From the NCBI GenBank assembly GCA_031556035.1, contig JAVBTT010000006.1, positions 45,655 through 109,654 of the forward strand: a stretch of 64,000 nucleotides of DNA, given 5' to 3'. The DNA comes from Oscillospiraceae bacterium (GTDB lineage: Bacteria; Bacillota; Clostridia; Oscillospirales; UBA929). The notes under the pieces are model-generated. The model was not told the origin of the DNA. It ran no database searches and was given only the letters and a program-made list of their open reading frames with translations. A program made the position numbers and the translations under genes. This document shows positions 6,740-62,881 of this stretch, one piece after another. How positions within the stretch are numbered: the stretch's first letter is position 1; every line of letters starts with the position of its first letter.

Positions 6740-6828
6740 ACCGGCGCGGACTTATTCCAAACGGCAGGCTGGAAAAAGTTAGCGCAATGTCCTGTAAAAA
6801 CTGATGACGTGAAAAACAACCCTCTGTC

Positions 6829-14377: not shown

Positions 14378-14383
14378 AAAGAA

Positions 14384-14427
14384 GAGCGGAGCCGGGCGTG
14401 TCTCAAACAATCCAAGGAGCGGCGCCC
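14384..14427. repeat. B-family repeat, 5' half (AGAAGAGCGGAGCCGGGCGTGTCTCAAACAATCCAAGGAGCGGCG) immediately after the stop codon
   Basis: Starts 4 nt after the TAA of the SLH glycosidase gene. Same terminus as the copies at 15888, 17741, 42535 and 45754 (reverse). Confidence 0.7.
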
Positions 14428-14744
14428 TCTCAGACCCTGCGGGGCCAGCTCTCCCAAGGGGAGAGCCCAGGCCGATGACAAACTACTGTTTGTCATCGAA
14501 AACGAGGGCAAGCTGTCGCCGCTGAGGCGGCTCGCAGAGAAAGGCTTTCCCGGAGTGAATCCGTGAAAGCCTTGAATTTCAAACTTTTTCACTCTTGCGG
14601 TCAAGCAAGAACCTGCCGCCTCCGGCGTCAGGCTCAACGCGCAAAAGTGAAAAAGGACGGAGGTCGCGGACTTTGTCAGCAGCCTGATCTCTCCCTGTGG
14701 GAGAGGTGGCGCGAAGCGCCGGAGAGGGTGCGCCAGCCGTGGAG
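14428..14744. repeat. A-family structured repeat, copy A2, with flank modules Y (left) and X-revcomp (right)
   Basis: Same core as A1. The flanks CAGACCCTGCGGGGCCAGCTCTCCCAAGGGGAGAGCCCAG (left) and CTCTCCCTGTGGGAGAGGTGGCGCGAAGCGCCGGAGAGGGTGCGCC (right) are the exact reverse complements of the flanks of copy A3, but on the opposite sides. Confidence 0.85.
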
Positions 14745-15149
14745 AAATAAAAACACACCATTTTTTAAAAACTCTCCCCATATTTACCTCTCATATTGCT
14801 TCCGCTCCGGGTCATACTATGTGTGGACAACGACGGACAAGCTTTGGAACAGCTGATGATGTTCACTATTGCTCCAGGCCGGTGCAGGAGAGTAAAATCT
14901 CCGTAAAAGCGAATGGCTGAGTGGTTTTAAAAAGGGTCCGAATAGACGTTGTCAAGCGTTGAAGACGGTTTGTGATAGGGCCGCTAAAAAATGCGCCGCC
15001 GGGGTTCCGTAGAGGAGTCCCGGCGGTTTCCCGTTTGCGATATCATGCGACCTCGTTTTCAGGGTGGTAAAAACACTTGTAATGCAATATAAATGTAGTG
15101 TATAATTGCTTAATCCGGCGCGAGCATATATGAAACGAGGGCCGTCTGT

Positions 15150-15887
15150 GTGACACTTGAGGTTTTGGGCGTGGATACATACTGCACAATAGCGGGCTCC
15201 GGCCCGCATCTGGTTTTTCTCCACGGCTGGGGAGTGGGACACGAGCTATACGCCCCGCTGCTGGAGCATCTCCAAAAGACGCACACCGTCTTCGCGCCCG
15301 ATCTACCCGGCTTCGGCAAGACACCGGAGCCGCCGGAGCCGTGGGGCGTGGACGAGTATGTGTCGTTTTTGCTGGAGTTTATGTCAGCCGCGGGGGTCAC
15401 AGCCCCCGTCATGATGGGGCACAGCAACGGCGGGCGCGTACTGCTCAATCTGCTTCCCAGGCACGACACAGGCGCGAAGAAGCTTGTTTTAATAGCCAGC
15501 GCGGGCTTGAAGCCCAAACGCGGTTTAGGGTATTACGCCAGAGTCTATACTTATAAGGCGGGCAAGGCGGTTCTGACGCCGTTCCCTGGCCTGAAGCGCC
15601 GCCTGACTGAAAACCGGGGCTCGGAGGATTACCGCCGCGCGTCCCCTCTGATGAAGGCCACGATGTCGCGGCTGCTGTCCTCGGACGCGACCGCGCTTCT
15701 GCCTAAGATAAGCGTCCCCACCCTACTGATCTGGGGCGAGGACGACACCGCCGCGCTGCTTAGCGACGCGAAAATTATGGAACGCGCTATCCCGGACGCA
15801 GGGCTGGCCCAATTGCCGGGCGGCCACTGGGCGTTTATGGAGCAGCTGCCCCGGACGCTGAGGATATTGGACAGTTTTTTACAATAA
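15150..15887 (+). CDS. alpha/beta-fold hydrolase
   Basis: GTG start. Motifs HGWGVGHELYAPL and the nucleophile elbow MMGHSNGG. 245 aa. Confidence 0.8.
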   Translation: MTLEVLGVDTYCTIAGSGPHLVFLHGWGVGHELYAPLLEHLQKTHTVFAPDLPGFGKTPEPPEPWGVDEYVSFLLEFMSAAGVTAPVMMGHSNGGRVLLNLLPRHDTGAKKLVLIASAGLKPKRGLGYYARVYTYKAGKAVLTPFPGLKRRLTENRGSEDYRRASPLMKATMSRLLSSDATALLPKISVPTLLIWGEDDTAALLSDAKIMERAIPDAGLAQLPGGHWAFMEQLPRTLRILDSFLQ

Positions 15888-16038
15888 GAAGAGCGCAGCC
15901 GGGCGGGTCTGAAAATATCCAAGGAGAAACGAAGTGTACGACGCAGGATATTTTCAGACAAAGCGCAGGCGTTTGGCGTAGTCCGCAAAGCGGACGCAGC
16001 CAAAGCCGGAGCGGCAGCCCGGCGGGAGCTTGACAATG
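15888..16038. repeat. B-family repeat, full copy (AGAAGAGCGCAGCCGGGCGGGTCTGAAAATATCC…GGATATTTTCAGAC…GCGGCAGCCCGGCGGGAGCTTGACA)
   Basis: Starts right at the TAA stop of the hydrolase gene and contains a 14-bp-stem hairpin. It is the reverse complement of the copy at 45583-45754. Confidence 0.85.
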
Positions 16039-16039
16039 C

Positions 16040-16095
16040 CGGAATCCCCCTGTCACCTTCGGTGACATCCCCCTTGTTAAAGGGGGACGTTGACG
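16040..16095. repeat. D-family short palindromes (GTCACCTTCGGTGAC and CCCCCTT..AAGGGGG)
   Basis: The same hairpin pair recurs at 17795-17855 and 23285-23440. Confidence 0.6.
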
Positions 16096-16168
16096 GCACT
16101 GTGGGTGCGCCGCATCCCCGCCCGCCGTATCTCACAACACCAACACAATCATCTCTGGGAGGGATTCA

Positions 16169-17734
16169 ATGCTCTGGATGCTCCTGTCAGTGTTTTTCGC
16201 GTCAGCAATGCTCGTCTCCCTGCGCTTTGTCCACATGCTCCAGCTCAGCTCCTATCAGACGCCGGGCTACCGCAAGTGGCTCAGGGAGAACGGCGCGGAT
16301 GTCTACAGGGCCATGGCACCGCTTGCTGTCGGCGCGTTGCTTGCCGCAATATTTGAGAATGAGTATATGGCTATTGCGGCAGCGGCGTCCATGCTGCTGG
16401 CCCTTGTTTTGCAACCGCGCAAAAAAGCGAAAAAGCCGCTGGTCTTTACGGGCAGGGTGGTGCGCCTGCTTGCGGCGCACGCGCTCCTGCTGGCTGCCCT
16501 CTGTATCGCGGCGTATTTCCTGTGGCTTGCCCCGTTTTTATGGCTTGGCCCACGGGTGCCGATAGCGCTGCTGTGCCTGTCCATGTTCGCGTCCGCCCAG
16601 ATCCTCATGGTGGCAAACTGGATCACCATGCCGCTGCAAAAGCTTATCAACGGCTTTTACCTCAGGGACGCCCAAAACAAGCTCGCCGCTGTCCCGAATC
16701 TGCTCGTGATAGGAGTCACCGGAAGCTACGGGAAGACCTCCGCGAAAGTGTTCCTGCACAAGCTGCTCTCCTCGCGCTACAACGTGCTGATGACCCCGGA
16801 GAGCTACAACACCCCGATGGGCGTCGTCCGGGCTATACGGGAGGGCCTTGAGCCGTCCCACCAGCTCTTTGTCTGCGAGATGGGCGCGCGGCATGTCGGG
16901 GACATAGCCGAGCTCTGCCGGATTGTGCGCCCCTCCCACGGCCTGATCACCTCCATAGGCCCCCAGCATCTTGAGACGTTCGGGAGCCTTGAGAACATAA
17001 TCAATACAAAATTTGAGCTGATAGACGCGCTGCCGCCCGAGGGCATTGCGTTTCTGGCGGACGGCAACGAGCATATACACCAAAGGCCGATATCCCGGCG
17101 CACCGTGCGCTACGCGCTGCGGGACGACACGGGGCTCGACTACCGCGTGACCGATATATCGGCGGACAGGCGCGGCAGCCGTTTTACAGTGACAACCAGG
17201 GACGGTGAGAGCCGGGAATTTCTCACCCCGGTGCTGGGACGGCATCAGGTAGAGAATATCGCGGGCGCGATTGCGGTGGCTCACACGCTGGGCATCAGTC
17301 TGGCCAAGCTCGCGCTGCCGGTCATGGGTTTGGAAAACCCGCCTCACCGTCTGAGGCTGATACGCGGCGGCGGCCTGACCGTGATAGACGACGCCTTCAA
17401 CGCCAACCCCGCCGGAGCCAGGGCCGCTTTGGACACTCTTGCAATGTTTTCCGGCGCCAAGATACTCGTCACCCCCGGCATGGTCGAGCTGGGAGAAAGG
17501 CAAAACGAGCTCAACCGCGAGTTTGGCCGGGACGCCGCCAGCGTGTGCGACTATGTGGCGCTGGTGGGAGTAAAGCAGACGCTGCCGATAGCAGAGGGAC
17601 TGCTTGAGGAAGGCTATCCGGAGGCAAGGTGGAGGGCGTTCGACACGCTCGGGCAGGCCATGGACTGGGTGCGCGGCCTGGACGCCGAGGACAAGGTTGT
17701 GCTGCTTGAGAACGATCTGCCGGATAATTATTGA
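16169..17734 (+). CDS. murF: UDP-N-acetylmuramoyl-tripeptide--D-alanyl-D-alanine ligase (MurF) with an N-terminal ~150 aa transmembrane extension
   Basis: Mur-ligase P-loop GVTGSYGKTS with central and C-terminal Mur domains. Followed directly by ddl. A GGGAGGG SD sits 5 nt before the ATG. Confidence 0.8.
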   Translation: MLWMLLSVFFASAMLVSLRFVHMLQLSSYQTPGYRKWLRENGADVYRAMAPLAVGALLAAIFENEYMAIAAAASMLLALVLQPRKKAKKPLVFTGRVVRLLAAHALLLAALCIAAYFLWLAPFLWLGPRVPIALLCLSMFASAQILMVANWITMPLQKLINGFYLRDAQNKLAAVPNLLVIGVTGSYGKTSAKVFLHKLLSSRYNVLMTPESYNTPMGVVRAIREGLEPSHQLFVCEMGARHVGDIAELCRIVRPSHGLITSIGPQHLETFGSLENIINTKFELIDALPPEGIAFLADGNEHIHQRPISRRTVRYALRDDTGLDYRVTDISADRRGSRFTVTTRDGESREFLTPVLGRHQVENIAGAIAVAHTLGISLAKLALPVMGLENPPHRLRLIRGGGLTVIDDAFNANPAGARAALDTLAMFSGAKILVTPGMVELGERQNELNREFGRDAASVCDYVALVGVKQTLPIAEGLLEEGYPEARWRAFDTLGQAMDWVRGLDAEDKVVLLENDLPDNY

Positions 17735-17740
17735 GAAGAG

Positions 17741-17855
17741 CGGAGCCCCCGCGCGTGAGCAAATATGCGACGAGCAGCGGGGAGCGCAGCTTGACATTAA
17801 AAAATCCCCCTGTCGGCCACAGGCCGACATCCCCCTTTGACAAGGGGGACATTGG
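17741..17855. repeat. B-family 5' half (GAGAAGAGCGGAGCCCCCGCGCGTGAGCAAATAT…) followed by D-family hairpins
   Basis: Begins right after the murF TGA stop and matches the reverse complement of the half-copy at 7076-7142. Confidence 0.7.
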
Positions 17856-17918
17856 ACTTATTTTTTCCGGGCTTTGCACAAAGCCCATCCCCAAAACATC
17901 TCAAAGGAGTGATTCACC

Positions 17919-19091
17919 TTGAGCATTCAGGTCGCCGTGTTTTTCGGCGGGAAAAGCGTCGAGCACGAGGTGTCGGTGATATCCGGCCTCCAAGCCTGCG
18001 CCGCGCTGGACAGGGGTAAATATACGGCGGTGCCGGTTTACATCGCCAAGGACGGCGCGTTTTACAGCGGCGACGAGTTTGGGAAGATAGAGAATTACAG
18101 GGACATCCCGAGGCTGCTTGAGAACGCCCGGCAGGTCTACCTGATCCGCTCGGGCGGCAAGGTGCTGCTCAAGGCCGACGTCAAAAAGCTCTTCGGGGCG
18201 GAGAAGCCGCTCCAGATAGACGTGGCCCTGCCGGTTGTTCACGGCACGTTCGCCGAGGACGGAACGCTCCAGGGCTACCTTGAGACACTGGGGCTGCCCT
18301 ACGCCGGGAGCGACGTGCTGTCCTCGGCCGTCAGCATGGATAAGCTTGTGACCAAGCGGCTGCTGCGGGCCGCCGGGCTGCCGGTGCTGCCGGAGGCCAA
18401 AATAACCTCCGAGGACTTCGCCGAGCGTCAGGGTCGGGCGCTCACCGACCTTGAGACCGAGATAACATACCCTGCTGTGGTCAAGCCGGTCAACCTCGGC
18501 TCCAGCGTGGGCATCTCCAAGGCTGAGAACCGCGACAGGCTGATCGAGGCGCTGGCGCTGGCCTTTAAGTTCGCGTCCGACGCCATAGTCGAGCCGGCGG
18601 TGATACATCTGCGGGAGATCAACGTAGCGGTGCTGGGGGATCGCGAGGGCGCGCGCGCGTCCGTCTGCGAGGAACCGATCGGGCGCGACGAGATTCTGAG
18701 CTTCAAGGACAAGTACATGTCCGGCGGCAAGGGCAAGGCGTCCGGAATGAGCTCCCTGAAGCGCAGGCTCCCCGCCGATATCCCGGACGAGCTGGCAAAG
18801 CAGGCGGGAGAGCTGGCGGTCAGGGCGTTTCAGGCGCTGGGTTGCTCAGGGGTGGCCCGGGTGGACTTCCTGCTGGACACCTTCAGGAATACGCTGTATA
18901 TCAACGAGATAAACCCCATACCCGGCTCGCTGGCCTTTTATCTCTGGAAGGAGAGCGGAACCGATTTCCCCGCGCTGCTGGAGGAGCTGATCTCGCTGGC
19001 CTTCGCCCGTCAGCGCAGGCGCGGCGAGCTGACCTTCGCGATAGACACGAATTTGCTTAGTACTACAGAATGGAAAGGAAGCAAGCAATGA
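17919..19091 (+). CDS. ddl: D-alanine--D-alanine ligase
   Basis: TTG start with an AAAGGAGTG SD. Ddl N-terminus (IQVAVFFGGKSVEHEVSVISG) and ATP-grasp motifs. Confidence 0.9.
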   Translation: MSIQVAVFFGGKSVEHEVSVISGLQACAALDRGKYTAVPVYIAKDGAFYSGDEFGKIENYRDIPRLLENARQVYLIRSGGKVLLKADVKKLFGAEKPLQIDVALPVVHGTFAEDGTLQGYLETLGLPYAGSDVLSSAVSMDKLVTKRLLRAAGLPVLPEAKITSEDFAERQGRALTDLETEITYPAVVKPVNLGSSVGISKAENRDRLIEALALAFKFASDAIVEPAVIHLREINVAVLGDREGARASVCEEPIGRDEILSFKDKYMSGGKGKASGMSSLKRRLPADIPDELAKQAGELAVRAFQALGCSGVARVDFLLDTFRNTLYINEINPIPGSLAFYLWKESGTDFPALLEELISLAFARQRRRGELTFAIDTNLLSTTEWKGSKQ

Positions 19092-20779
19092 AGTTCAAAG
19101 ACATGCCGTACAAACGCGCCGGGCTTGAGGAGTATCAGGGGCTTTTCAGGAATCTCACCGGTAGGATGACGTCCGCCGCCTCGCAGGAGGAGGCTTTCAA
19201 GGCAATGGAGGAGTTCGACGGGGCCTGCGAGCGTCTGAGCACGATGGATGCCCTGGCCTTTATCCGCAACTCCATAGACACCACCGACGAGTTTTATGAC
19301 AGGGAAAAGGCATATTACGACGAGGCCATGCCGACCCTTCAGGAGGATATCCAGAAGTTCTCGATAGCCCTGCTTGATTCCCCCTACCGCCCGCAGATGG
19401 AGGAGAAGTGGGGAAAGCTCATCTTCCTGCGCACCGAGATGGAGCTGAAGTGCTTCTCGCCCGAGATTATCCCCGATCTCCAGGAGGAGAACCGGCTGAC
19501 AACCGAGTACGACAAGCTGATTGCCTCCGCGCAGATAGAGTACGACGGCAAGACCCTGACCCTGTCCCAGCTTTCGCCGTACCACCAGAACCCGGACAGG
19601 GCTGTGAGGGAGAGCTCGTTCAGGGCGCGCTCCGAGTGGTTTGAGAGCCATAAGGACACCCTGGACAGACTGTTCGACGAACTTGTAAATGTGCGTACAA
19701 AAATGGCTAAAACGCTCGGATACAAAAACTTTGTCCAGCTCGGCTACTACCGCATGAGCCGCGACTGCTACACCAGGGACGACGTGGCGAGATTCCGCGC
19801 GTCGGTAAAGGAGAACATCGTGCCTGTGGCGGCGAGGTTGAAGAGGGCCCAGGCCGACAGGCTCGGGGTGCCCGCGCTGAAGATGTATGACGACCCTTGC
19901 GAATACAAGACCGGCAACGCCGACCCGGTCGGCACCCCGGATGACATATTCGCCCACGGCAAGAAGATGTACCACGAGATGTCGTCGGAGACCGCCGGGT
20001 TTATAGACGCGATGCTGGAGGATGAGCTGTTCGACGTGCTGTCCCGCAAGGGCAAGTCCGCCGGAGGATACTGCTGCACGCTGCCGGCCTTCAAATCCCA
20101 GTTTATCTTCGCCAACTTCAACGGCACCGCCGGAGATGTCGACGTGCTGACGCACGAGGCGGGGCACGCCTTCGCGGCCTATCTTGCCCGCGACGTGTTC
20201 CCCATGACTCTAAAGTCCCCGACCAACGAGGGCTGTGAAATCCACTCGATGTCGATGGAGTTTTTCGCCTGGCCCTGGATGGAGGGCTTCTTCGGTGAAA
20301 AGACGGACAAATACCGCTATACGCACCTGTCCGGGGCGCTGACGTTCATCCCCTACGGTACGATTGTCGACTACTTCCAGCATATAGTCTATGAAAACCC
20401 GGACATGACCCCGGCCCAGCGCTGCGAGAAGTGGAAGGAGCTGGAGGCCGAGTTCAGGCCGTGGCTCGACCTGAGCGACACCCCGTTCTTCGGCGAGGGC
20501 CGCCGCTGGCAGGCGCAGGGGCACATCTTCGAGCGCCCGTTCTACTATATAGACTACTGCCTGGCCCAGACGGTCGCGCTCCAGTTCTGGGCGCTGGCGC
20601 AGAAGGATCGCGAGGGAGCCTGGGAGCGCTATATGAAATACACGCTCCAGGCCGGAACAAAGCCTCTGCTCGGGCTCATAGAGGGTGCGGGCATGGACAG
20701 TCCGTTCGGCGCCGAGGCTCTCAGGACGGTGGCGGACGCGGCCTCAGCCTGGCTGGACGCGCAGCCGCCGGTGGAATAG
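19088..20779 (+). CDS. M3-family oligoendopeptidase (PepF-like)
   Basis: HEAGHAF zinc motif. ATG at 19088 overlaps the ddl stop (ATGA), with a GGAAAGGAAG SD upstream. Confidence 0.85.
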   Translation: MKFKDMPYKRAGLEEYQGLFRNLTGRMTSAASQEEAFKAMEEFDGACERLSTMDALAFIRNSIDTTDEFYDREKAYYDEAMPTLQEDIQKFSIALLDSPYRPQMEEKWGKLIFLRTEMELKCFSPEIIPDLQEENRLTTEYDKLIASAQIEYDGKTLTLSQLSPYHQNPDRAVRESSFRARSEWFESHKDTLDRLFDELVNVRTKMAKTLGYKNFVQLGYYRMSRDCYTRDDVARFRASVKENIVPVAARLKRAQADRLGVPALKMYDDPCEYKTGNADPVGTPDDIFAHGKKMYHEMSSETAGFIDAMLEDELFDVLSRKGKSAGGYCCTLPAFKSQFIFANFNGTAGDVDVLTHEAGHAFAAYLARDVFPMTLKSPTNEGCEIHSMSMEFFAWPWMEGFFGEKTDKYRYTHLSGALTFIPYGTIVDYFQHIVYENPDMTPAQRCEKWKELEAEFRPWLDLSDTPFFGEGRRWQAQGHIFERPFYYIDYCLAQTVALQFWALAQKDREGAWERYMKYTLQAGTKPLLGLIEGAGMDSPFGAEALRTVADAASAWLDAQPPVE

Positions 20780-20871
20780 GGTTCCGCCCTCTCCGGGTGA
20801 GCGTCACCTGGAGAGGGCGGCCTTTGCATAACACAGCGTGAGATAAGTATGACTTTTGAGAAGGAGAACGC

Positions 20872-23228: not shown

Positions 23229-23284
23229 GCCGCCACCCCGCAATATCAAAGCGCCGCCGTAAGGCGGCGCTTTAGGCTGCTGAC

Positions 23285-23440
23285 AAATATATGCCTCCCT
23301 CCCTGAGGGAGGTGCCGTCAACGGTGGCGGCAGACGTCTGCCGCCACACGTACAGACGGCGGAGGGAGTATTCACCTCTCCCCCAGTCACCTTCGGTGAC
23401 AGCCCCCTCAAAGAGGGGGCCAAAAAGAGCTAACCCTTAG
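23285..23440. repeat. D-family palindrome cluster (CTCCCTCCCTGAGGGAGG; GGCGGCAGACGTCTGCCGCC; GTCACCTTCGGTGAC; CCCCCTCAAAGAGGGGG)
   Basis: Perfect short palindromes read directly from the sequence. GGCGGCAGACGTCTGCCGCC also occurs at 31626-31645. Confidence 0.6.
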
Positions 23441-23478
23441 GTTATGTCATCGGTTTGAAAGCGGCGCTTTTTCACGCG

Positions 23479-25245: not shown

Positions 25246-25307
25246 ACAAAAATCCCTCACATCGACATTATTGCGGCGCGGCGTATCGCGCCGGGGCTCC
25301 GCTCTTC

Positions 25308-27224
<1,917 letters not shown>

Positions 27225-27299
27225 TTAATCACCCTTCCGGCAAATATAGAGGCGGGGTTCCATCCCCGCCCGAAGCGTTTTTTGGAATGAAACAAAATA

Positions 27300-27554
27300 T
27301 TAAAATCCGCCCCTCGCCCTTTTCTCAATAGTCCCGGCGGCTATCTGTGTGAGAATTACCTCCGTCTTTCCCAGCCCGTCGTACAGCACGACCGATCTTG
27401 GCAGGTCGGTTCCCACCATCGAAACCCTCCCGGCCCTTTCGGCTGCGCTGAGAAACGCTCGGGTGCGTTTGCTTTGGCTAATGTTGTCAAGGTCAAAGAC
27501 GCCGATTATCCCGCCAGAGCGCAAAACCCTTTCCTGACCGATGAAGATATACAT
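27300..27554 (-). CDS. DUF370/RemB-like (YaaB-like) small protein
   Basis: MYIFIGQERVLRSGGIIGVFDLDN…, conserved in position between recF and gyrB as in Bacillus. Start trimmed to the ATG at 27554. Confidence 0.7.
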   Translation of the reverse strand: MYIFIGQERVLRSGGIIGVFDLDNISQSKRTRAFLSAAERAGRVSMVGTDLPRSVVLYDGLGKTEVILTQIAAGTIEKRARGGF

Positions 27555-27671
27555 ACAGGCTGGCTCCTTTCGGTGGAAATCACTCTGTAGGGGCGGAGCT
27601 CCTCTCCGCCCTTCGGGTTTAGCAAACATAAATCATGCCCATTCATCGACAGACCGGCCTGTGTCCTGTCC

Positions 27672-28733
27672 CTACATCCCCAACACTATATTCTTCCCGT
27701 TAGTGTCCCTTGTCAACCCACCGGGCTCGCAGCAGGTGACGAACGCCTGCCCGCCTCCGAGTCCGTGCAGGATATAATCCCGCCTTCCGCCGTCCAGCTC
27801 GCTGAGCACGTCGTCCAGCAGCAGCAGGGGCGGCTCCCCGAATTCCCGGGAGAGTATATCGCGCTCGGCCAGCTTCACGGCCACAACAGCCGTCCTTGTC
27901 TGGCCCTGGCTCGCATACTCGCGGGCGTCCCTTCCGTCCAGTCTGACGGCTATGTCGTCCTTGTGGGCGCCGACCAGGCACATCCCGCGGGCAAGCTCCG
28001 CCTCCCGGCGGGCCTGCATATGGTTAAATGTATCCCCCGCATCCGCCGCGTGCGTCCTGTATTCAAGAGCGAGCTCCTCCTTTTCCCCGGAAATAAGCCG
28101 GTGGTGCTGCGCCGCCAGCTCCGACAGGCTCCGGCAGAACTCCCCGCGAAAGGCGCTCAGCTCAGCTCCGGTCTGCGCCAGCCTCAGATTGAAATCCGGC
28201 AAAGCGCCTAGAAAGTCCGGCTTTTTTTCGCTCTGCCTGAGAAGCTTTGTCTTGCCCTCCGCCAGCTTCCTGTATACCGACAGCAGGGACAGGTATCTCG
28301 GCCTGAGCTGGCAGAGCGCCATATCCATCAGCCTGCGCCTCGCCTGCGCCCCGCCCCTTATCAGGTGCAGGTCCTCCGGCTCAAAGTACACCGACGGCAG
28401 CCTCCCGAGCAGCTCTCTTGGGGATTTGACCGGAGCGCCGTCCAAAAACAGCTTACGGCGGGAATCCCGGCATATGACGGCGTTAATTGAGCATTCGCGC
28501 CCGCCGCTCTCGAACTCGGCTTCTATTTCGGCGGCGTCCGCCCCGAAACGTATCAGCTCGCGCTCCTTCCCGGTTCTGGGCGAGCGCGCGGCGGACAGGT
28601 AGGCTATAGACTCCAGCAGGCAGGTCTTGCCCACCCCATTCGGCCCTGTTATCACGTTTACTCCGGAGGAAAACCCAAAAATATCTCTTTCGTAGCGCCT
28701 GAAATTCCCGAGCTCTATCCTGAGGAGCCTCAT
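27672..28733 (-). CDS. recF: DNA replication and repair protein RecF
   Basis: MRLLRIELGNFRRYE…VITGPNGVGKTCLLESI Walker A. ATGA overlap with the dnaN stop. Confidence 0.9.
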   Translation of the reverse strand: MRLLRIELGNFRRYERDIFGFSSGVNVITGPNGVGKTCLLESIAYLSAARSPRTGKERELIRFGADAAEIEAEFESGGRECSINAVICRDSRRKLFLDGAPVKSPRELLGRLPSVYFEPEDLHLIRGGAQARRRLMDMALCQLRPRYLSLLSVYRKLAEGKTKLLRQSEKKPDFLGALPDFNLRLAQTGAELSAFRGEFCRSLSELAAQHHRLISGEKEELALEYRTHAADAGDTFNHMQARREAELARGMCLVGAHKDDIAVRLDGRDAREYASQGQTRTAVVAVKLAERDILSREFGEPPLLLLDDVLSELDGGRRDYILHGLGGGQAFVTCCEPGGLTRDTNGKNIVLGM

Positions 28734-29836
28734 GCGTCGGGCTTCAGCCTGACCGGAAGCACCATGTACAGCATGTCCTCCCCCTCCGGGGGAAGGAACA
28801 GGCAGGGCAACAGCGGTCCGCCGCACTCTATCCGCACGTCGTCCCCCTCAAGGTGGCGCAGCGCGTCTGACACGTAGCGGTTGTTGAAGCCTATCTCCAT
28901 CTCCATGTTTGAGTCGCACTCCATGGCGTCGGTAGCGCTTCCAATCGCGGTCACGGTTGAAAGCACCAGCTTTTTATCTGAAAATTTGAGTTTTATCGGG
29001 TTTTTAAGCTTGTCGCTTATCAGAAGGGACACGCGATCCACGCACTTAACAAATTCTCTCAGTCCAGCCGTTCCCCTGAATATCCTGTCCTGAGGGATCG
29101 CGTTTTTGTATTTGAGGAACTCCCCCTCCAGCAGCCTTGTAACCACCGTTATCTGCCCAAGATCAAATATTATGTGCCTCTGACCTATATGCAGCCTGAC
29201 CTCGGCTTCCTCGTCCGCGGAGAGCATTTTCTCCACCTCACGCAGAGGAGCGCCCGGCACTACGAACGAGAATTCTCCCTCCATTTCCGCCGCCTCACGG
29301 CGCAATGCCAGCCTGTGCCCGTCCAAGGCGACAATGGTGAGCGTCCCGGGCTCGCAGTCAAAGAGCGCCCCTGTATGGATTTGCTTTGCCTCACTTTCGG
29401 ATGCCGCGAACAGAGTTCCGCCCAGCTGCCTGCCCAGCGCGGACTGGCTGAGGGTGAGCTCCCGCATCCCGGTCACTTCCGGGATTGCCGGGAAATTGTC
29501 GCATGGCAGAGCGGTGAGGGCGAAATCTGAAAGACCGCAGGTAATGGACACGATGAACCTTTCGTTCACCTCTATGTTTACAGTGTCGTCCGCCAGCTTG
29601 CGGACAATATCCAGGAACATTTTGCACTCCAGCACAAAGCGTCCCGTCCGCTCAACCTTCGCGTCGATACGGGCGATAATGGCCATCTCCATATTGTTGC
29701 CGGTCAGGGTCAGGGTATCTTCCCCTGCCTCCAGCATCACTCCCTTGAGGAGTTCTACAGTGGCGTGAGTGGGCACGGCGCGCGCACAGTTTGTCAGGGC
29801 GTCCTGAAGGGTGTTTTTTTCACAGCTGAATTTCAT
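28730..29836 (-). CDS. dnaN: DNA polymerase III beta sliding clamp
   Basis: 368 aa with the typical three-domain DnaN sequence (MKFSCEKNTLQDAL…). Confidence 0.95.
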   Translation of the reverse strand: MKFSCEKNTLQDALTNCARAVPTHATVELLKGVMLEAGEDTLTLTGNNMEMAIIARIDAKVERTGRFVLECKMFLDIVRKLADDTVNIEVNERFIVSITCGLSDFALTALPCDNFPAIPEVTGMRELTLSQSALGRQLGGTLFAASESEAKQIHTGALFDCEPGTLTIVALDGHRLALRREAAEMEGEFSFVVPGAPLREVEKMLSADEEAEVRLHIGQRHIIFDLGQITVVTRLLEGEFLKYKNAIPQDRIFRGTAGLREFVKCVDRVSLLISDKLKNPIKLKFSDKKLVLSTVTAIGSATDAMECDSNMEMEIGFNNRYVSDALRHLEGDDVRIECGGPLLPCLFLPPEGEDMLYMVLPVRLKPDA

Positions 29837-30120
29837 TCCCGCAACCCCCGTGAAAATAAATCGTTCTATATTAAAGAGAGATAGAATATAATAATATTTT
29901 ATTAGTTACTATAGTATATCCTGTGGATATGTTAATAAGTAAATAAAACGCTAGAGCGGCATGTATTTGCGAATTCACAAAAAATGTGGATGAACATGAA
30001 TGTTGTCCACAGCTGTCCACATGACCGGGAGGGTAAGGGTACAAATGTGGAGTATTTTGTCCACATTTGTATAAGTTTGTGGATAAGTAGGGCGCTGCAT
30101 CCCTGTCACTCCGTTTGTAT
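29837..30120. promoter_or_regulatory. oriC: DnaA-box cluster plus AT-rich unwinding element in the dnaA-dnaN intergenic region
   Basis: Matches to TTATCCACA: revcomp TGTGGATAA at 30078-30086 (perfect); TTGTCCACA at 30003-30011 and 30057-30065; CTGTCCACA at 30013-30021; revcomp TGTGGATGA at 29985-29993; revcomp TGTGGATAT at 29922-29930. An AT-rich block lies at 29860-29920. Confidence 0.75.
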
Positions 30121-31410
30121 TTATTTACCCCTGATATTCTCCATCAGAAGGTTTATTGTCTTGTCAAAAGCGTCGTCAGTACCGCGCATCTCCTCCACCT
30201 TTTCCACCGCGTACATCACGGTCGTGTGGTCGCGCCTGAAAACCTTGGTTCCAATTTCCTTCAGGCTCATAGAGGTCAGAGAGCGCACCAGGTACATGCA
30301 TATCTGCCTGGCGGTTACTATGTCTGCCTGCCTGTTTTTGCCAAGTATATCGCGCTCTTCTACCCCGTAAAAGGCGGAAACCTCGGAAATTATCATGTCA
30401 GGAGTGGGATTCAGGCCGGGGTTCTCGCGCATTAGGTCGGCAATAGCCTTCTCTGCGGTGGTTACGTCCACCGGACTGTGCAGCAGATCCCGCCATGCGA
30501 CGATCTTCTTGACGGTTCCCTCGAGCTGGCGCACATTGGCGGTGACGGACGTGGCCAGGTACAGCACCACATCGTCCGGCAGCAGTAGACCCATCCTCTG
30601 AGCCTTGCTCTTGACAATCGCCATCCTGGTCTCAAAGTCGGGTGGTTGTATATCCACTATCAGGCCGGACTCAAAGCGGGTTCTCAGCCTGTCTTCAAGC
30701 GCCGGAACCTCCTTGGGAGGTCTGTCGGATGTGAGCACTATCTGGTGCCCGGCGTCGTACAGGGTGTTGAAGGTGTGAAAGAACTCCTCCTGAGAGAAGT
30801 TGCGGCCCCCGATGAACTGTATGTCGTCGACCAGCAGCAGATCGGCGCTGCGGTATTTGTCGTGAAATTCATGGGTTTTTTTGTTCTGGAGGGCGTTTAC
30901 CAGGTCGTTTGTAAAAAGCTCCGCCGAGAATACGCGCATCTGATATTCAGGGTGGGAGGCCCTGATAAAGTTCATTATGGCGTACAGCAGATGGGTCTTG
31001 CCAAGGCCCGAGCCGCCGTATATAAACAGCGGATTGTAGGCCTGACCTGGCGATTCCGCCACCGCCTTCGCAGCAGCGGCCGCGAATTTGTTCGAATCCC
31101 CGACAACAAAGTTTTCAAAACCGAATTCCCTGATGCCGCAGCTGTCCTGCTTGGATGGTGCCGTCCTTTCAAGTGTCACCTCAAGTTTCATAGGAGTGCC
31201 GAACAGCTCGAAAAGGGCGTCCGTAACCGGTTTTGAGTATCGCGACAGAATTATGCCGCGCTTGAGCTCTGTGGAGGTGAGCAGGGTGAGAGTGTCCTCG
31301 GTAAGGCTCAATATTTCGGCGTCGTCAAACCAGGCGTTCAGTACGGACGCCGGCATGTCCCTGCTGAGGATATCCAGCAGGTATGTCAAAATGTCTTCTT
31401 TGGGCTGCAA
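30121..31410 (-). CDS. dnaA: chromosomal replication initiator protein DnaA
   Basis: AAA+ motifs (GGSGLGKTHLLYAI, LLVDDIQF) and a C-terminal DNA-binding domain. The N-terminus aligns with Bacillus DnaA domain I. TTG start. Confidence 0.95.
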   Translation of the reverse strand: MQPKEDILTYLLDILSRDMPASVLNAWFDDAEILSLTEDTLTLLTSTELKRGIILSRYSKPVTDALFELFGTPMKLEVTLERTAPSKQDSCGIREFGFENFVVGDSNKFAAAAAKAVAESPGQAYNPLFIYGGSGLGKTHLLYAIMNFIRASHPEYQMRVFSAELFTNDLVNALQNKKTHEFHDKYRSADLLLVDDIQFIGGRNFSQEEFFHTFNTLYDAGHQIVLTSDRPPKEVPALEDRLRTRFESGLIVDIQPPDFETRMAIVKSKAQRMGLLLPDDVVLYLATSVTANVRQLEGTVKKIVAWRDLLHSPVDVTTAEKAIADLMRENPGLNPTPDMIISEVSAFYGVEERDILGKNRQADIVTARQICMYLVRSLTSMSLKEIGTKVFRRDHTTVMYAVEKVEEMRGTDDAFDKTINLLMENIRGK

Positions 31411-31539
31411 AGCGCTCTCCGCCTTCCGGAAGGTGAATTTCCGCCCCGCGAACGCGCGGCATAATGATTATATCGGAAAAAGCATTATATCACAACAGGG
31501 ACAGACGCGCCATAGCCTTCATGTGATTTTTGACAGTTT

Positions 31540-31592
31540 TTATTATTTTTTATGCAAAGAAAACGAAACCCCCGCCGTTGGCGGGGGCAGAT
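31540..31592 (-). terminator. rho-independent terminator downstream of proS (minus strand)
   Basis: GCCCCCGCCAACGGCGGGGGT hairpin followed on the minus strand by a TTTCGTTTTCTTT U-rich tract. Confidence 0.65.
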
Positions 31593-31713
31593 ATTTGAAC
31601 AATGGGGATATTACATAGCACCTTAAAGATGGCGGCAGACGTCTGCCGCCAATCATCAAACCATCGGGAAGGAATACGGCGGGCGAGGTGGTAGGCTCCC
31701 GGCTCCGCTCTTC

Positions 31714-33150: not shown

Positions 33151-33209
33151 AAAAACCCCCCCATTAAATTCCATGTAGGGGCGATTATCAATCGCCCATT
33201 CGCAAGAGA

Positions 33210-33424
33210 CCCGCCCGGCTGCGCTCTTCGGTGATGTCAAGCTCCCGCCGGGCTGCCGCTCCGGCTTTGGCTGCGTCCGCTTTGCGGACTGCGCCAAACG
33301 CCTGCGCTCGGCTCCAAATAATCCTGCGCGTGCCCGCTTACGCTCTGTCAAGCGGACTTCGTCCGCTCTTCGAGCTTGCGGCCATGCTCGGCTTATTTCT
33401 CGCCACGCCCGGCTCCGCTCTTCT
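33210..33424. repeat. B/C-family repeat, long form with GTGATGTCAAGCTCCCGCCGGGCTGCCGCTCCGGCTTTGGCTGCGTCCGCTTTGCGGACTGCGCCAAACGCCTGCGC… module, both termini GGCTSCGCTCTTC
   Basis: Near-identical copies at 38372-38642 and, in the opposite orientation, embedded at 15888-16038, 42535-42708 and 45583-45754. It yields a recurrent artefact ORF ([25 protein letters not shown]…). Confidence 0.85.
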
Positions 33425-33507
33425 GATTTTAACATTTTCAGCGCACTTGTCAAGCAGTGGGGCCATATGATGGTGTTGAGAACATTGATTGACAAGGTTG
33501 TGCTTGC

Positions 33508-33816
33508 ATGTATACAAAATTTTTTGTTCAGCCGGGCGAAAACGAGTGGATAAAAACCGAGGTCACCCTCAAGCCGGACAGCCGCAGTGCGCTGCACGGC
33601 ACCGTTACCGGCCCGGACGGCAGGCTTGTCTGCGACGCCCTGGTCATGCTGTTTCTGGCGGATAAGGCCGCCGACGCCGTGAAGTTTACAGCCTGCACGT
33701 TCACCGACGACTCCGGGCAGTTCGCGTTCGGTCCGCTCGACCCCGGCCGCGTTTACGCCGTCAAGGTGTTCAGAAACAGCGTCAAGGTGCGGGAACTGGA
33801 GATTGTCACCGATTAG
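33508..33816 (+). CDS. small protein with a single carboxypeptidase-regulatory-like / Cna-B-like beta-sandwich domain; uncertain
   Basis: [18 protein letters not shown]…[22 protein letters not shown] pattern. There is no clear SD. Confidence 0.4.
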
Positions 33817-33861
33817 GGCGGCGTATTGACAGACGCTGTACCGGTACAAATATCTCTTCGG

Positions 33862-34983
33862 TTATTTCCACATGAGCTTTCTCGTGGGCTCAAGCTCAAA
33901 GCCCATCGCCTTGAGCTCGCTTTCGATCTGCCCCGCGCTCTCGCCGCTCCAGCCGTAGGCCCCAAAGGCGAGCCCCCTCTTGTTTTTGGGGGACAGGCCG
34001 CGCATATAGGTCAAAAACGCGGCGACCTGCGGCATGACGTTCCTGTTCAGGGTCGGGCTGCCCACCGCCACAAACGACGCCTCAAGCACTTTGGCCATCG
34101 CGGTCGAGACATGCCCGTCCTTCAGGCAGAAAAGCTCCGGCTCCATGCCGCGTCCGGCGAGCTCGCTGAAGAGCGCCTCCGCCATCTTCCGCGTCGCGCC
34201 CCACATCGTGTCGTACACGATGACGGCCTTCCGGGGATTGGAGCCCCCGCCCGCCCAGAGCTCGTATTTTTTGAGCATCTCGCCCACATACGAGCGCAGT
34301 ATGACCCCGTGGCTGGGGCATACGGTGTCGATCTCAAGGGCCGAGATATCGCCCAGCAGCTTTTTGACCGGCATCCCGAACGGCAGGACTATGTTGGCGT
34401 AATAGTCCCCCGCGCGCTCAAGCAGCCTCTCCAGGCCGATCTGGTCGTCAAAGCGCTCCAGGGACGCGATATGCTGCCCCAGCGCGTCGTTGCAGAACAG
34501 CGTTTTTTCCGCTGCCAGATATGTCGTCATGCTGTCCGGCCAGTGGACCATCGGCATGGGTAAAAAGGAGAACTCATATTTGCCGGTGCTGAGGGTGTCG
34601 CCCGCCTTGACGGCGCGGACGCGGGCGCCGCCCATAATCTCCGGGTAGTAGGCGTTCAGACCCTTTTGCCCGTTCTGGGACGTGATGATCTCGGCGTTCG
34701 GGGCGATGGCGCGAAAATGCGGAAGCGCCCCCGAGTGGTCCGGCTCCACATGGTTTGAGATATGGTAAGCTATTTTGGCGGGGTCGACTATTTCCCGGAT
34801 ATTCTCCATCAGCTCAGCGGTGTGGGTGGCCTTGACCAGATCAATCAGGGTAATTTTTTCATCCAGCACAAGATACGCGTTGTAGGTTGTGCCGCAGGGA
34901 GTCAGATAGCCGTGGAAGTTCCGCACGTCGTAGTCAATCGCGCCCACCCAGTATATGTTGTCCTTTATCTTTACAGCGCCCAT
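33862..34983 (-). CDS. FprA-family A-type flavoprotein (flavodiiron protein: metallo-beta-lactamase-like plus flavodoxin domains)
   Basis: HxExDH-type motif SNHVEPDHSG and a flavodoxin-like C-terminal domain. GGAGG SD. Confidence 0.85.
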   Translation of the reverse strand: MGAVKIKDNIYWVGAIDYDVRNFHGYLTPCGTTYNAYLVLDEKITLIDLVKATHTAELMENIREIVDPAKIAYHISNHVEPDHSGALPHFRAIAPNAEIITSQNGQKGLNAYYPEIMGGARVRAVKAGDTLSTGKYEFSFLPMPMVHWPDSMTTYLAAEKTLFCNDALGQHIASLERFDDQIGLERLLERAGDYYANIVLPFGMPVKKLLGDISALEIDTVCPSHGVILRSYVGEMLKKYELWAGGGSNPRKAVIVYDTMWGATRKMAEALFSELAGRGMEPELFCLKDGHVSTAMAKVLEASFVAVGSPTLNRNVMPQVAAFLTYMRGLSPKNKRGLAFGAYGWSGESAGQIESELKAMGFELEPTRKLMWK

Positions 34984-35129
34984 GTTGTACCTCCAGCAAG
35001 CATATAATTTTTTGAAAAAATAATATCACTTCCGGCGGCGCGTGTCAAACGCGGCGCATAACTCCCGCCCGCTTCGGTTCATAATAGCAGTGTACGCGGC
35101 TAATTTGGACGCCGGGAGGGGATTTTTTT

Positions 35130-35804
35130 ATGCTTGTGGCGATAACGCGCACCGCCATACTGTACATCGTTGTCATTACGGCAATGAGGATAATGGGCAA
35201 GCGGCAGATTGGCGAGCTGGAGCCCAGCGAGCTGGTGGTGGCAATTATGATCTCGGAGCTGGCCGCCGTCCCGATGCAGGAGCCCGGGATGCCGCTTGTG
35301 TCCGGCCTGGTGCCGATTGTGACCCTGATTTCGCTGGAGATACTCATATCGCTGCTGCTGCTCAAAAGCGTCAGGCTGCGCAAGCTGTTCTGCGGGACTC
35401 CCAGCGTGCTGATTGAAAACGGCAGGATTTTGCAGAAAGAGCTCAAAAAAAACCGAATGACTATGGACGAGCTGATTGAGGATCTGCGGCTGCAGGACAT
35501 TTTGGATCTCAGCACGGTGCAGTACGCGATACTTGAGACAAACGGCAAGCTCAGCGCCATATTGTACTCCGAGCACCGCCCGATGCCGGCCGGAAAGCGG
35601 GGAGGGGCAGACCGCGGCCTGCCGGTCGTACTGATAAACGACGGGCGCACCCTGTCCGCGAATCTTGAGAAGCTTGGCCTGGACGAGAAATGGCTGTACA
35701 GCGAGGTCAAGGGAAGGGGCGTGTCCGGGCCGTCCGAGGTTTTTCTGCTGATGCGGGACGAGCAGGGCGGCGTATACTATCTGCCCAAGGAGAAAGCGAG
35801 ATGA
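35130..35804 (+). CDS. DUF421 (YetF-like) membrane protein
   Basis: Characteristic N-terminus (ILYIVVITAMRIMGKRQIGELEPSELVVAIMISELA). Confidence 0.8.
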   Translation: MLVAITRTAILYIVVITAMRIMGKRQIGELEPSELVVAIMISELAAVPMQEPGMPLVSGLVPIVTLISLEILISLLLLKSVRLRKLFCGTPSVLIENGRILQKELKKNRMTMDELIEDLRLQDILDLSTVQYAILETNGKLSAILYSEHRPMPAGKRGGADRGLPVVLINDGRTLSANLEKLGLDEKWLYSEVKGRGVSGPSEVFLLMRDEQGGVYYLPKEKAR

Positions 35805-36181
35805 AGCAGGCTGTTCTGGCGGGCGCGCTGCTGTTGGCGATGCTGATTTGCGGGGTAGCGAGCCGCAGCTACACCGGCTCGTTTTCCCGTGAGATAGGGG
35901 AGGAGCTTGCCGCGGCCCGGGCGGGGGTTGAGGCCGGGGACTGGGACAAGGCGGAGAGAGGAATGCTCTCCGCTATGTCGCGCTGGGAGGATTCGCGCAA
36001 GGTGATGGGCTTTATCGCGGCGGACGCGGAGCTCGCGGCGGTGGACGCCGCGCTGGCCGGGGTATACTCGGCGCTCGAAAACAGGGACGGCGCAGAGCTG
36101 GATACGCAAATAAGGCTTGTCACGCTGTTGCTCGGGGTGCTGGTGGAACAGGAGAGACTGACGTGGCAAAACCTAGGGTAG
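35801..36181 (+). CDS. DUF4363-like small membrane-anchored protein
   Basis: ATGA overlap with the DUF421 gene stop. N-terminal TM helix. The DUF421/DUF4363 pairing is common. Confidence 0.65.
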   Translation: MKQAVLAGALLLAMLICGVASRSYTGSFSREIGEELAAARAGVEAGDWDKAERGMLSAMSRWEDSRKVMGFIAADAELAAVDAALAGVYSALENRDGAELDTQIRLVTLLLGVLVEQERLTWQNLG

Positions 36182-36281
36182 ACTTTGAAATAAACAGTTT
36201 CACTCCCGCTCGTCTGCGCATACGATATATTGCGGGGGAGGGGCGTAGCCCATCTCCCGAATAAAGCGTGGAAGCGAAGGG

Positions 36282-36797
36282 GTGCTCTGCATGTCTCTGT
36301 TAATTTTAAGCAGCCGTCCAGCGGCCGCCACTGGCGAGGGTTGGGATGTCATGCCCACAAGGGGGCGTTTGGCGGCAAGGGCGTTGATGGCCGCGACACA
36401 GCCGGCCCTGACAATACGGGGTGAGGTCAGATTTTACGAAGCCGGGGATAAGGGCTGCCTGGTCGAGGCGTCGGTGGAGGGGCTGCCCACCGGGCCGAAC
36501 GCGCACCCGTTTCTCGCCTTCCATATCCATGAAAACGGCTCCTGTGCCGACGCCGGGATGGCCGCCGGAGGTCACTACAATCCGGAGGGCCGCCAGCACG
36601 GGTATCACGCCGGGGATCTTCCGTCCCTTTTGAACGCCGACGGGATCGCGGAGAGCGTCGTCTACACAGACCGCTTTGTGCCCGGGGACGTGATCGGGAG
36701 GACGGCGATTATACACGAGCTGCCGGACGATTACCGCACCCAGCCCAACGGCAGCGGAGGCCCGCGCATTGCCTGCGGCGTTATAGAAATGGTATAG
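36282..36797 (+). CDS. sodC: Cu/Zn superoxide dismutase
   Basis: Motifs FHIHENGSC, GGHYNP, HAGDLP and GGPRIACGVI. Confidence 0.85.
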   Translation: MLCMSLLILSSRPAAATGEGWDVMPTRGRLAARALMAATQPALTIRGEVRFYEAGDKGCLVEASVEGLPTGPNAHPFLAFHIHENGSCADAGMAAGGHYNPEGRQHGYHAGDLPSLLNADGIAESVVYTDRFVPGDVIGRTAIIHELPDDYRTQPNGSGGPRIACGVIEMV

Positions 36798-36920
36798 TTC
36801 TCAGCGGATTTCCGTAAAAAGGCCCCAGTTCGCAAATTTCCCTTGCAAACCCCTCCCGGCTGCAATAGAATGTATCGGGGCATGCCGCGTCCGGCCCGTC
36901 CAACGGAAGGGGGATTGCAG

Positions 36921-38054
36921 TTGTTTGAATCGTTAAGGCAGTGGAAAAAATATATACTGCCCTTTTCGCTCGCCGTGTTTATTTTCGCGTTCATCACAAG
37001 CTATGACGGCACTATGCATCTGCTGCGCAGCGTGTTCGGCTGGCTCGGCTTTATACTGAGCCGGTTTCTGCTTGGGTTCGCGATGGCCTACATGGTGGAC
37101 TTCCTGGTGGAGTTTCTTAAAAAGCGCCTCAAATTTCCGCGCTGGCTCGCGATCGGAGCCTCCTATGTCCTGCTGCTGGGCCTGTTGGTCTGGATGATAC
37201 TCTACATAGCCCCTCTGACGGTGGAGAGCGTGAACCAGATCATAACGGTGCTCACCGACGCGTACGGCAGGTTTACGGGCTATCTGGCCGACTCTGAGCC
37301 TCTGATCGACCCGCAGATGTTCGACATGCTGACCGGGCTGCTGGACGGCATAAAGGAGAGTCTGCTCTCCGTGCTGAAGGGGCTGCTGGACTATTCCTTC
37401 ATCGAAAGCGCACTGAAGATATCCACCCGGATGCTGATGAACATCTCCTTCGGCTTCCTGATCTCCCTGTATGCGATTATTGAGAAGGAGCCCCTGCTGC
37501 GCAACGCCAGGGCGATAGTCAGGGCGCTTTTCCCCAAGCGCTCCCCGCGGATATTTGAGCTGGCGGGAGAGGCCAACCGCACATTTTCCCGCTTTTTGGT
37601 GGGCAAGACAGTGGACTCCCTGATAATCGGCCTGCTCAGCTATATCCTCTACATGATATTCAGGCTGCCGATCTCGCCGTTCCTGGCTGTCGTGGCGGGG
37701 GTCACAAATATGATCCCCTACTTCGGCCCGATTGTGGGCGGGGCGGTCACGGTACTGCTACTGATCTGCTACCAGCCGATTTACGCGCTGTACGGGTTGA
37801 TCATAGTCGTGGCCGTCCAGACGGTGGACGGCATGGTGCTCGGCCCGAAGATACTGGGCGACGCGGTGGGCATAAGCCCGCTGCTCACGATTTTCGCGAT
37901 CTCCATAGGCGGGGATGTGGCGGGCTTCCTGGGGATGTTCATAGGGGTGCCGGTGCTCGCGGTGTTTAAGAAGATGATTTACCACACATTTATTAAGAAG
38001 AGGATGGCCTCGAGCGAGGCCTCCGGGCCTCCGGCCGCGCCTGACGGCGGATGA
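36921..38054 (+). CDS. AI-2E family transporter (PerM/UPF0118)
   Basis: C-terminal signature IPYFGPIVGG…GGDVAGFLGMFIGVPVLAV. TTG start at 36921 chosen after a GGAAGGGGG SD. The track ORF starts further upstream at 36843. Confidence 0.75.
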   Translation: MFESLRQWKKYILPFSLAVFIFAFITSYDGTMHLLRSVFGWLGFILSRFLLGFAMAYMVDFLVEFLKKRLKFPRWLAIGASYVLLLGLLVWMILYIAPLTVESVNQIITVLTDAYGRFTGYLADSEPLIDPQMFDMLTGLLDGIKESLLSVLKGLLDYSFIESALKISTRMLMNISFGFLISLYAIIEKEPLLRNARAIVRALFPKRSPRIFELAGEANRTFSRFLVGKTVDSLIIGLLSYILYMIFRLPISPFLAVVAGVTNMIPYFGPIVGGAVTVLLLICYQPIYALYGLIIVVAVQTVDGMVLGPKILGDAVGISPLLTIFAISIGGDVAGFLGMFIGVPVLAVFKKMIYHTFIKKRMASSEASGPPAAPDGG

Positions 38055-38070
38055 GGCCGCGCCCGGCTGC

Positions 38071-38371
38071 ACACCCTCTCCGGCGCTTCGCGCCACCTCT
38101 CCCACAGGGAGAGCTCAGACCGATGACAAACTACAGTTTGTCATCGAAAACGAGGGCAAGCTGTCGCCGCTGAGGCGGCTCACAGAGAACGGCTTTCCCG
38201 GAGTGAATCCGTGAAAGCCTTGAATTTCAAGCTTATTCACTCTTGCGGTCAAGCAAGAACCTGCCGCCTCCGGCGTCAGGCTCGACGCGCAAAAGTGAAA
38301 AAGGACGGAGGTCGCGGAATTTGTCTTCACTCTGGGCTCTCCCCTTGGGAGAGCTGGCCCCGCAGGGTCTG
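38071..38371. repeat. A-family structured repeat, copy A3, with flank modules X (left) and Y-revcomp (right)
   Basis: Core identical to A2. The left flank CACCCTCTCCGGCGCTTCGCGCCACCTCTCCCACAGGGAGAG and the right flank CTGGGCTCTCCCCTTGGGAGAGCTGGCCCCGCAGGGTCTGAGAGGG are the reverse complements of A2's right and left flanks. Confidence 0.85.
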
Positions 38372-38642
38372 AGAGGGTGCTGCTCCTTGGTTATTTTTCA
38401 ACGCGCGGGGGCTGCGCTATTCGGGTGATGTCAAGCTCCCGCCGGGCTGTCGCTTCGGCTTTGGCTTTGTCCGCTTTGCGGACTGCGCCAAACGCCTGCG
38501 CTCGGCTCCAAATAATCCTGCGCGTGCCCGCTTACGCTCTGTCAAGCGGACTTCGTCCGCTCTTCGAGCTTGCGGCCATGCTCGGCTTATTTCTCGCCCC
38601 GCCCGGCTGCGCTCTTCGGGTGATGTCGGTGAGTTTTCCGAG
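38372..38642. repeat. B/C-family repeat, long form (near-identical to 33210-33424)
   Basis: Direct sequence identity over more than 200 nt. Confidence 0.85.
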
Positions 38643-62880: not shown

Positions 62881-62881
62881 G

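Follow-up and report, generated by a model that had tools for sequence, protein, structure and literature searches.

The intergenic repeats of bacteria that resemble transposable elements of the miniature inverted-repeat type (MITEs) include the Correia elements (CREE) of Neisseria, ERIC/IRU of enterobacteria, and RUP and BOX of pneumococcus. In the present work, 64,000 nucleotides of chromosomal DNA that surround the origin of replication in a spore-forming Oscillospiraceae bacterium (hereafter the window) were analysed. The window was found to hold five copies of a repeat, the A core, two of which are enclosed by small hairpin modules, a and b, that stand on swapped sides at the two loci. 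The A core was like the elements named above in being short, non-coding, hairpin-forming, dispersed in intergenic DNA, present in many near-identical copies and bounded by terminal inverted repeats. Further points of likeness were long and short forms made by internal deletion, mixing of end subtypes, chimeric copies and restriction to a lineage. Nevertheless, it had no sequence similarity to them, and it sits inside another repeat, in both orientations. Correia elements duplicate TA, whereas the A core was without target-site duplication. We know of no parent insertion sequence for it. Within this known kind of element, the A core forms a new family.

The modules were reminiscent of REP, BIME and REPIN sequences, which are also small extragenic palindromes with subtypes, inverted pairs that form long hairpins, and mosaics made with other conserved motifs just 3' of genes. 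Some insertion sequences (IS1397, IS621/IS110 family) are known to target REPs, and the hairpin or palindrome targeting proposed below for the A core would resemble theirs. Unlike REPs, the modules have two hairpins in ∼45 nt and no 5' GTAG, and their host is a Firmicute and its phages; no RAYT/Y1 transposase was found among the scanned open reading frames (ORFs) of the window. The Whalefall-1 RNA motif (RF01762) has a CUCUCC-loop-GGAGAG hairpin, a variable second hairpin and a AGGGUGAGGAC-like tail, in which it looks similar to the module read in reverse complement together with the extension that it has in phage contigs. The scores were 12–21 bits against a gathering score of 37, however, and for the modules of the window 19 bits was reached only when the alignment shifted to another register and left out the second hairpin. 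No Rfam family reached its threshold for the modules or the phage units.

Two other kinds of system were compared. As in invertons (fimS, hin), a segment of ∼220 bp lies between inverted repeats and both orientations are seen; but the orientations occur at two different loci, most copies are without the repeats, and neither a recombinase (Pfam scan of ∼40 window ORFs) nor a promoter-like site in the A copies (simple consensus scan) was found. The IS200/IS605-derived PATE elements have no target duplication, subterminal hairpins, a fixed target of 4–5 nt at the left end and a strand bias relative to replication. The A core fits the first two of these features, but its left flanks have no fixed target. 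A Helitron-like reading (5'-TC...CTRR-3') was rejected, as the flanks were not A and T.

Arrangement of the A cores and flanking modules

BLAST and a profile search of the window gave five A cores of 185–222 nt with pairwise identities of 87–94%, all of them intergenic:

6851-7072, plus strand: A1 core, long form
14468-14686, plus strand: A2 core, bounded by CAG...CTG
38116-38334, plus strand: A3 core, on the same strand as A2, in the opposite orientation relative to modules a and b
55650-55834, plus strand: A4 core, short form with a 36-nt internal deletion in the innermost hairpin
62878-63098, minus strand: A5 core, between the inverted GGCGGGGGTC and GACCCCCGCC arms of a GC-rich hairpin

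The long, short and chimeric variants proposed in the initial annotation of this DNA were all recovered: A5 is a chimera that joins an A4-like 5' half, whose third hairpin is of the A4 variant, to a 3' half like that of A1. The intergenic regions that hold the copies are unrelated; two copies are placed between convergent genes, and their orientation relative to neighbouring genes was inconsistent. The plus strand carries four of the five, found to either side of the dnaA region, although five copies are too few to judge a strand bias. Only spurious open frames were present in the cores, and a protein search with a spurious 135-aa ORF across A2 gave no matches.

At A2 and A3 the core is flanked by modules of a common plan, CCCTCTC, a small variable G+C hairpin and CTCTCCC-NNN-GGGAGAG, and then on the side of module a by an end module of a second repeat family, B. 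Scores in bits are those of R1, a covariance model built from a and b alone:

14381-14424, plus strand: B-end module, GAAGAGCGGAGCC...CCAAGGAGC, which follows the stop codon of gene 11360-14377 and precedes module a
14425-14467, plus strand: module a (X in the initial annotation), CCCTCTC-AG-(CCC TGCG GGG hairpin)-CAG-CTCTCCC AAG GGGAGAG-CC, 76.6 bits
14689-14730, minus strand: module b (formerly Y), inverted, 77.2 bits
38072-38113, plus strand: module b, CCCTCTC-CG-(GCGC TTC GCGC hairpin)-CAC-CTCTCCC ACA GGGAGAG, 76.5 bits
38335-38377, minus strand: module a, inverted, 76.2 bits
38378-38426, minus strand: B-end module adjoining module a, with the a/B-end junction as at A2

Module a has 46 nt and module b 42 nt; the two were 77% identical. 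The left flank of A2 (14425-14470) was confirmed to be the exact reverse complement of 38326-38371 (46/46), and its right flank (14689-14730) that of 38072-38113 (42/42); outside these exact matches, identity dropped to ∼91% over 68–71 nt. The core boundaries were identical, with a-CC/CAG...CTG/AT-b' at A2 and b-CT/CAG...CTG/GG-a' at A3 (slashes mark the core ends). Because the outer context is polar and common to both loci, the a side of each running into the same kind of B-end module, the core is truly inverted relative to that context, in agreement with the earlier claim that identical modules had swapped sides around it. At A3, module b begins 18 nt past the stop codon of gene 36843-38054.

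The cores and the modules were unequally diverged. The two cores, on the same strand as had been reported, differed at 14 of 222 aligned positions, whereas the modules differed at 0 of 88 (Fisher p = 0.023), and neither the A2 nor the A3 core was nearer to the other than to A1. Such a pattern speaks against an a-core-b unit that was recently duplicated and then flipped. At the other three copies (A1, A4 and A5) modules a and b were missing, and the sequence stopped cleanly at identical core termini, with no ragged truncation points.

From this arrangement, the locus is on balance probably a mosaic of two independent kinds of repeat, in which an A core was inserted, in either orientation, at the centre of an a/b palindrome. 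The A core would be a lineage-specific, non-coding and non-autonomous MITE-like element that spread through intergenic DNA without target-site duplication, mobilised in trans by an enzyme that was not found in the window. At A2 and A3 it would have entered the exact centre of an a/b pair. Since a palindromic target looks alike from both strands, the core could enter either way; and since the pair is palindromic yet polar, insertion either way would make a and b seem to swap sides. We infer that A2 and A3 are separate insertions and not the product of a flip. The nested or mosaic MITE-like system that had been suggested was supported in this form, with the core confined to a lineage and lying inside an independent module pair, and the 'core inversion' is best read as an ordinary outcome of one repeat nested in a palindromic one.

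The insertion sites pointed in the same direction. The 5' end of the core adjoined a G-rich hairpin arm in all five copies, and the A2, A3 and A5 cores lay between inverted arms, which suggests that the A core may prefer hairpin or palindrome targets. A 13-bp direct repeat at A1, GGACGGAGGGTTG (6837-6849 and 7039-7051), had been taken for a target-site duplication. It is not one, because the right copy sits 21 nt inside the core and recurs, slightly varied, in all five A copies, and because the motif also precedes the homologous A copy of the sister species GCA_031550325.1 (L011), there in a hairpin that contains GGAGGGTTG. The left copy forms the 3' arm of a hairpin adjoining the 5' end of A1:

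6815-6849: hairpin CAACCCTCTGTCC-GAAGATG-GGACGGAGGGTTG, followed on the minus strand by TTTTT

This hairpin looks like the terminator of the gene at 7139-8407 on the minus strand.

The core at 55650-55834 (A4) gave a further view of insertion. It fills the gap between two convergent genes exactly, with no module remnants, and gives the last two codons and the stop codon of a deacetylase gene (55826-57136, minus strand). The orthologous convergent pair in a relative (L015) has a 28-nt spacer and no A core, and both proteins end at the same position; the relative has an empty site at the place of A4. The A core was thus a small, non-coding, multicopy sequence with terminal inverted repeats and with presence and absence at an orthologous site (in the distant L015), as in MITEs, but with a target-site duplication at none of its five copies.

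The ends of the core were imperfect 16-nt terminal inverted repeats, TCAGACCGATGACAAA...TTTGTCNNCAGNCTGA, in which 13 of 16 positions pair and A2 has one compensatory change. Four to five hairpins lie in the core. They had been described as nested and perfect; most were instead serial, and two had conserved mismatches. As had been stated, the core was no recognised family: no Rfam family was credible, either in the whole window at gathering score or for A2 at E = 10. Hammerhead and HDV-like (hepatitis delta virus) ribozymes were rejected by eye and by Rfam, for the core and for the modules.

Outside the window, L011 yielded homologues, two tandem diverged A copies of ∼80% identity (nhmmer E = 2e-18 and 3e-5) in which the hairpin order was retained with compensatory stem changes. 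When 185,579 species genomes, JGI metagenomes and IMG/VR were scanned for an exact 20-mer that is invariant in the core, all matches were by chance or in coding sequence. Core motifs were not found in IMG/VR viral contigs, nor was an A core in plasmid or phage collections. As far as these searches reach, the A core family is lineage-restricted. It appears to be a new and very dense structured intergenic repeat family of an uncultured Oscillospiraceae lineage, with five copies in 64 kb. The invariant 20-22-mer, GAAAACGAGGGCAAGCTGTC, was identical to sequence coding for ENEGKLS in ABC-transporter genes of unrelated Clostridia, which might be chance or a hint that the core derived from a gene fragment. 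The matches were:

L001 4525-4546
L005 6458-6479
L007 1586-1649
L010 11676-11739

The two-hairpin modules beyond the A cores

It was found that the modules also occur without an A core. In the window, two such features were detected:

23372-23426, plus strand: stand-alone diverged two-hairpin module (R1 27.6 bits, E 4e-4)
42744-42860: diverged inverted module pair with a 21-nt spacer and no A core (R1 22.4 bits for 42808-42860, and 11.8 bits)

The latter, an empty pair, folds as a single long hairpin. In a related metagenome-assembled genome (L013), a stand-alone module at 14289-14345 scored 45.9 bits (R1, E = 5e-8), and a faecal phage record found by BLAST (L017) had module copies at 54.1 and 34.8 bits. 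An exact-pattern scan found modules in at least 120 IMG/VR contigs, and R1 gave 130 matches at E ≤ 0.01 in the first 80 of the at least 120 IMG/VR loci. Among 245 viral modules defined by regular expression, 132 were of a-type (AG...AG) and 64 of b-type (CG...AC), which is the dichotomy seen in the window.

In the viral contigs, the modules were single, in tandem, in pairs of the window type with short spacers (empty), or in pairs around a 178-nt V core. The modules are therefore independent of the A core and commonly form inverted heterotypic pairs that make a long palindrome. The initial annotation had regarded core and flanks as one composite unit, which was not borne out. It had also said that stand-alone modules throughout the genome would reduce the apparent inversion to a juxtaposition of separate hairpin repeats; to a large extent stand-alone copies were indeed found, in the related genome, the faecal phage, at least 120 IMG/VR contigs and the window itself.

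A recurrent unit, a(-)-96 nt-b(+), was observed in gut phage contigs between terminase, portal and capsid genes. The V core had no homology to the A core by BLAST or nhmmer, although the first ∼12 nt of the two look alike, and in two diverged copies it had one orientation relative to a and b. The module units and V core in phage contigs were at:

L019 1447-1640
L023 2165-2358 and 4970-5166
L036 4238-4508
L037 6664-6934 and 12087-12357

The two-hairpin module with its two conserved subtypes is abundant in sequence from gut phages and Clostridia and appears uncharacterised. If the modules were targets or recombination sites of cassettes, or RNA structures in phage late operons, they would be worth a study of their own.

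Weighing the explanations of the swapped flanks

Several observations weigh against insertion of the A core into a palindromic module pair. The identity of the modules may reflect selection or gene conversion rather than a separate history. Only two copies are flanked by modules, so statistics on orientation were not possible; both exact a/b pairs in the window hold a core, and the sole empty pair is a diverged paralogue. A flanking direct repeat was lacking at all five copies, and no target sequence was conserved among them, the left flanks being GTT, GCC, GCT, GCT and GGT. No transposase with matching ends was found in the window, only an IS4-family fragment beside A5. The relative with the empty site is distant (60% protein identity) and not a strain of the same species. 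Finally, a functional RNA, or a DNA structure to which protein binds, would account just as well for the compensatory changes and for the conservation of two imperfect hairpins across species.

A rival explanation is that the whole a-core-b unit is mobile with the modules as its terminal inverted repeats, that two isoforms spread, and that A1, A4 and A5 lost their ends. The identity of the modules at both loci, the same B-end junction on the a side of each, and the comparable a-V core-b unit of phage contigs, present in two diverged copies, would all fit. However, core and modules were unequally diverged; A1, A4 and A5 all stop cleanly at shared core ends, A4 fits its gene gap exactly with no module remnants, and modules are single, in tandem or otherwise paired in many genomes. 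We consider this explanation unlikely.

A further explanation, compatible with mobility, is that the A core acts in cis as an RNA element or is a structured RNA gene in multiple copies, its hairpins being retained for a role as RNA and its spread being secondary. In an alignment of seven sequences that included the L011 copies, 89% of structure cells were paired, compared with 34–48% when partners were slid; double-sided changes were present at 10 pairs, compared with 5.1 in shuffles (2 of 500 shuffles reached 10); and, compared with shuffled sequence, the composite had a much better fold (z = -6.6). In the window and L011, two hairpins were nearly identical down to their mismatches, as were the single-stranded stretches beside them, whereas other stems had changed. 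These results show that the hairpin architecture is maintained, which might be at the DNA or the RNA level. On the other hand, the mismatches in the stems were C-A, C-T and T-T, not G-U, and compensatory change in palindromes can arise through templated mutation, with no selection needed. The core matched no Rfam family even at E = 10, and the simple consensus scan gave no promoter-like site in it; the one weak terminator-like stem (5 pairs, minus strand) lay at the same place in each core, but total counts were not above those of shuffles. The inconsistent orientation relative to neighbouring genes, the two copies between convergent genes and the overlap of A4 with a stop codon also spoke against an RNA role, which seems no more probable than the mobile unit.

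In another explanation, modules a and b are structure-specific recombination or landing sites, comparable to folded attC or to REP targets, that capture, flank and can invert unrelated short structured cassettes. Such cassettes may include the A core in this lineage, and the 178-nt V core and 96-nt linker in gut phage contigs. We rate this slightly lower than the two preceding explanations. If it were true, the swapped flanks would be the footprint of an undescribed cassette system in gut Clostridia and their phages.

Still less probable is an inversion in situ, in which the core is flipped, either by a recombinase or by template switching at its own terminal repeats or at the inverted arms, with A2 and A3 as two phases of one kind of locus. 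An inversion that broke at the CAG/CTG ends of the core would keep the outer parts of a and b where they are and turn the core round, as seen, and the arms of the second module hairpin beside the core (GGGAGAG / CTCTCCC) are perfect 7-nt inverted repeats. The lack of a recombinase and of a promoter-like site in the scans above, the three cores without a/b arms, and the single orientation of the analogous V core relative to a and b argue against it. Moreover, A2 and A3 do not have sister cores, and divergence is greater in these cores than in the arms around them. A mis-resolved core orientation at one locus in the repeat assembly is very improbable: short-read Logan unitigs of the same organism do break at the repeats (L006 inside module a, L016 inside A4), but a and b are only 77% identical, the two cores differ at 14 positions, the unique flanks mean that distinct sequence specifies each junction, and the contig coherently spans five A copies and many B copies.

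Repeat family B, gene ends and genomic setting

The second repeat, family B, is ∼160 nt long, with a 13-mer, GAAGAGCGSAGCC, at both ends, and it contains a TTGACA box and two long hairpins. Modules from its ends adjoin A1, A2 and A3. The B copies in the window were:

15888-16044
42535-42702
45586-45753, minus strand
33217-33424, minus strand
38410-38620, minus strand
5020-5210, minus strand

The 13-mer occurred 17 times in the window (0.4 expected). In nine of 15 exact copies the motif, read on its own strand, overlaps a stop codon or a stop triplet or starts 0–6 nt after one, and a GAAGAGCGCA version was present at a stop codon in a relative from another genus. The 13-mer may signal 3' ends, or it may be the terminus of a repeat that inserts at stop codons. 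Examples of its sites are:

14381, 15888 and 17735
25307, 31713 and 7139, minus strand
L013, 12547 and 14279

Between the genes for RNase H and cysteine desulfurase, the spacer (42560-43034) is 474 nt long here and contains a B copy and the empty module pair. In relatives it is only 128–161 nt (L011 13030-13159, L013 7441-7603), so these repeats were gained in this lineage.

Beside A5, a C-terminal fragment of an IS4-family transposase (63331-63999, minus strand; below the family cut-off) ends 230 nt from the core; the termini of this insertion sequence lie beyond the window, and the idea that it is the parent of the A core was dropped. Three tandem units of ∼45 nt, each with a CCCCGCC-GGA-GGCGGGG hairpin, were present 5' of gyrA in a close relative (L012 95-255). 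The hairpin whose arms flank A5 (window 62851-62876) is of this type.

The main genes around the origin were:

25.3-31.4 kb, minus strand: dnaA, dnaN, recF and gyrB
38737-41304: gyrA

The window also encodes parB, gidA/gidB, GerA-family genes and S-layer proteins. The closest relatives found had GyrA identities of 87% (L012), 84% (L011) and 79% (L013). The block dnaA-dnaN-recF-gyrB (25308-31410) was inverted relative to gyrA, whereas gyrB and gyrA were adjacent and collinear in L011, L013 and L014. Repeats were found at both breakpoints of this origin-proximal inversion, a B end at 25295-25307 and A3 with B at 38072-38620. The A repeats appear to reshape gene ends, one by providing a stop codon and others through their place at the inversion breakpoint.

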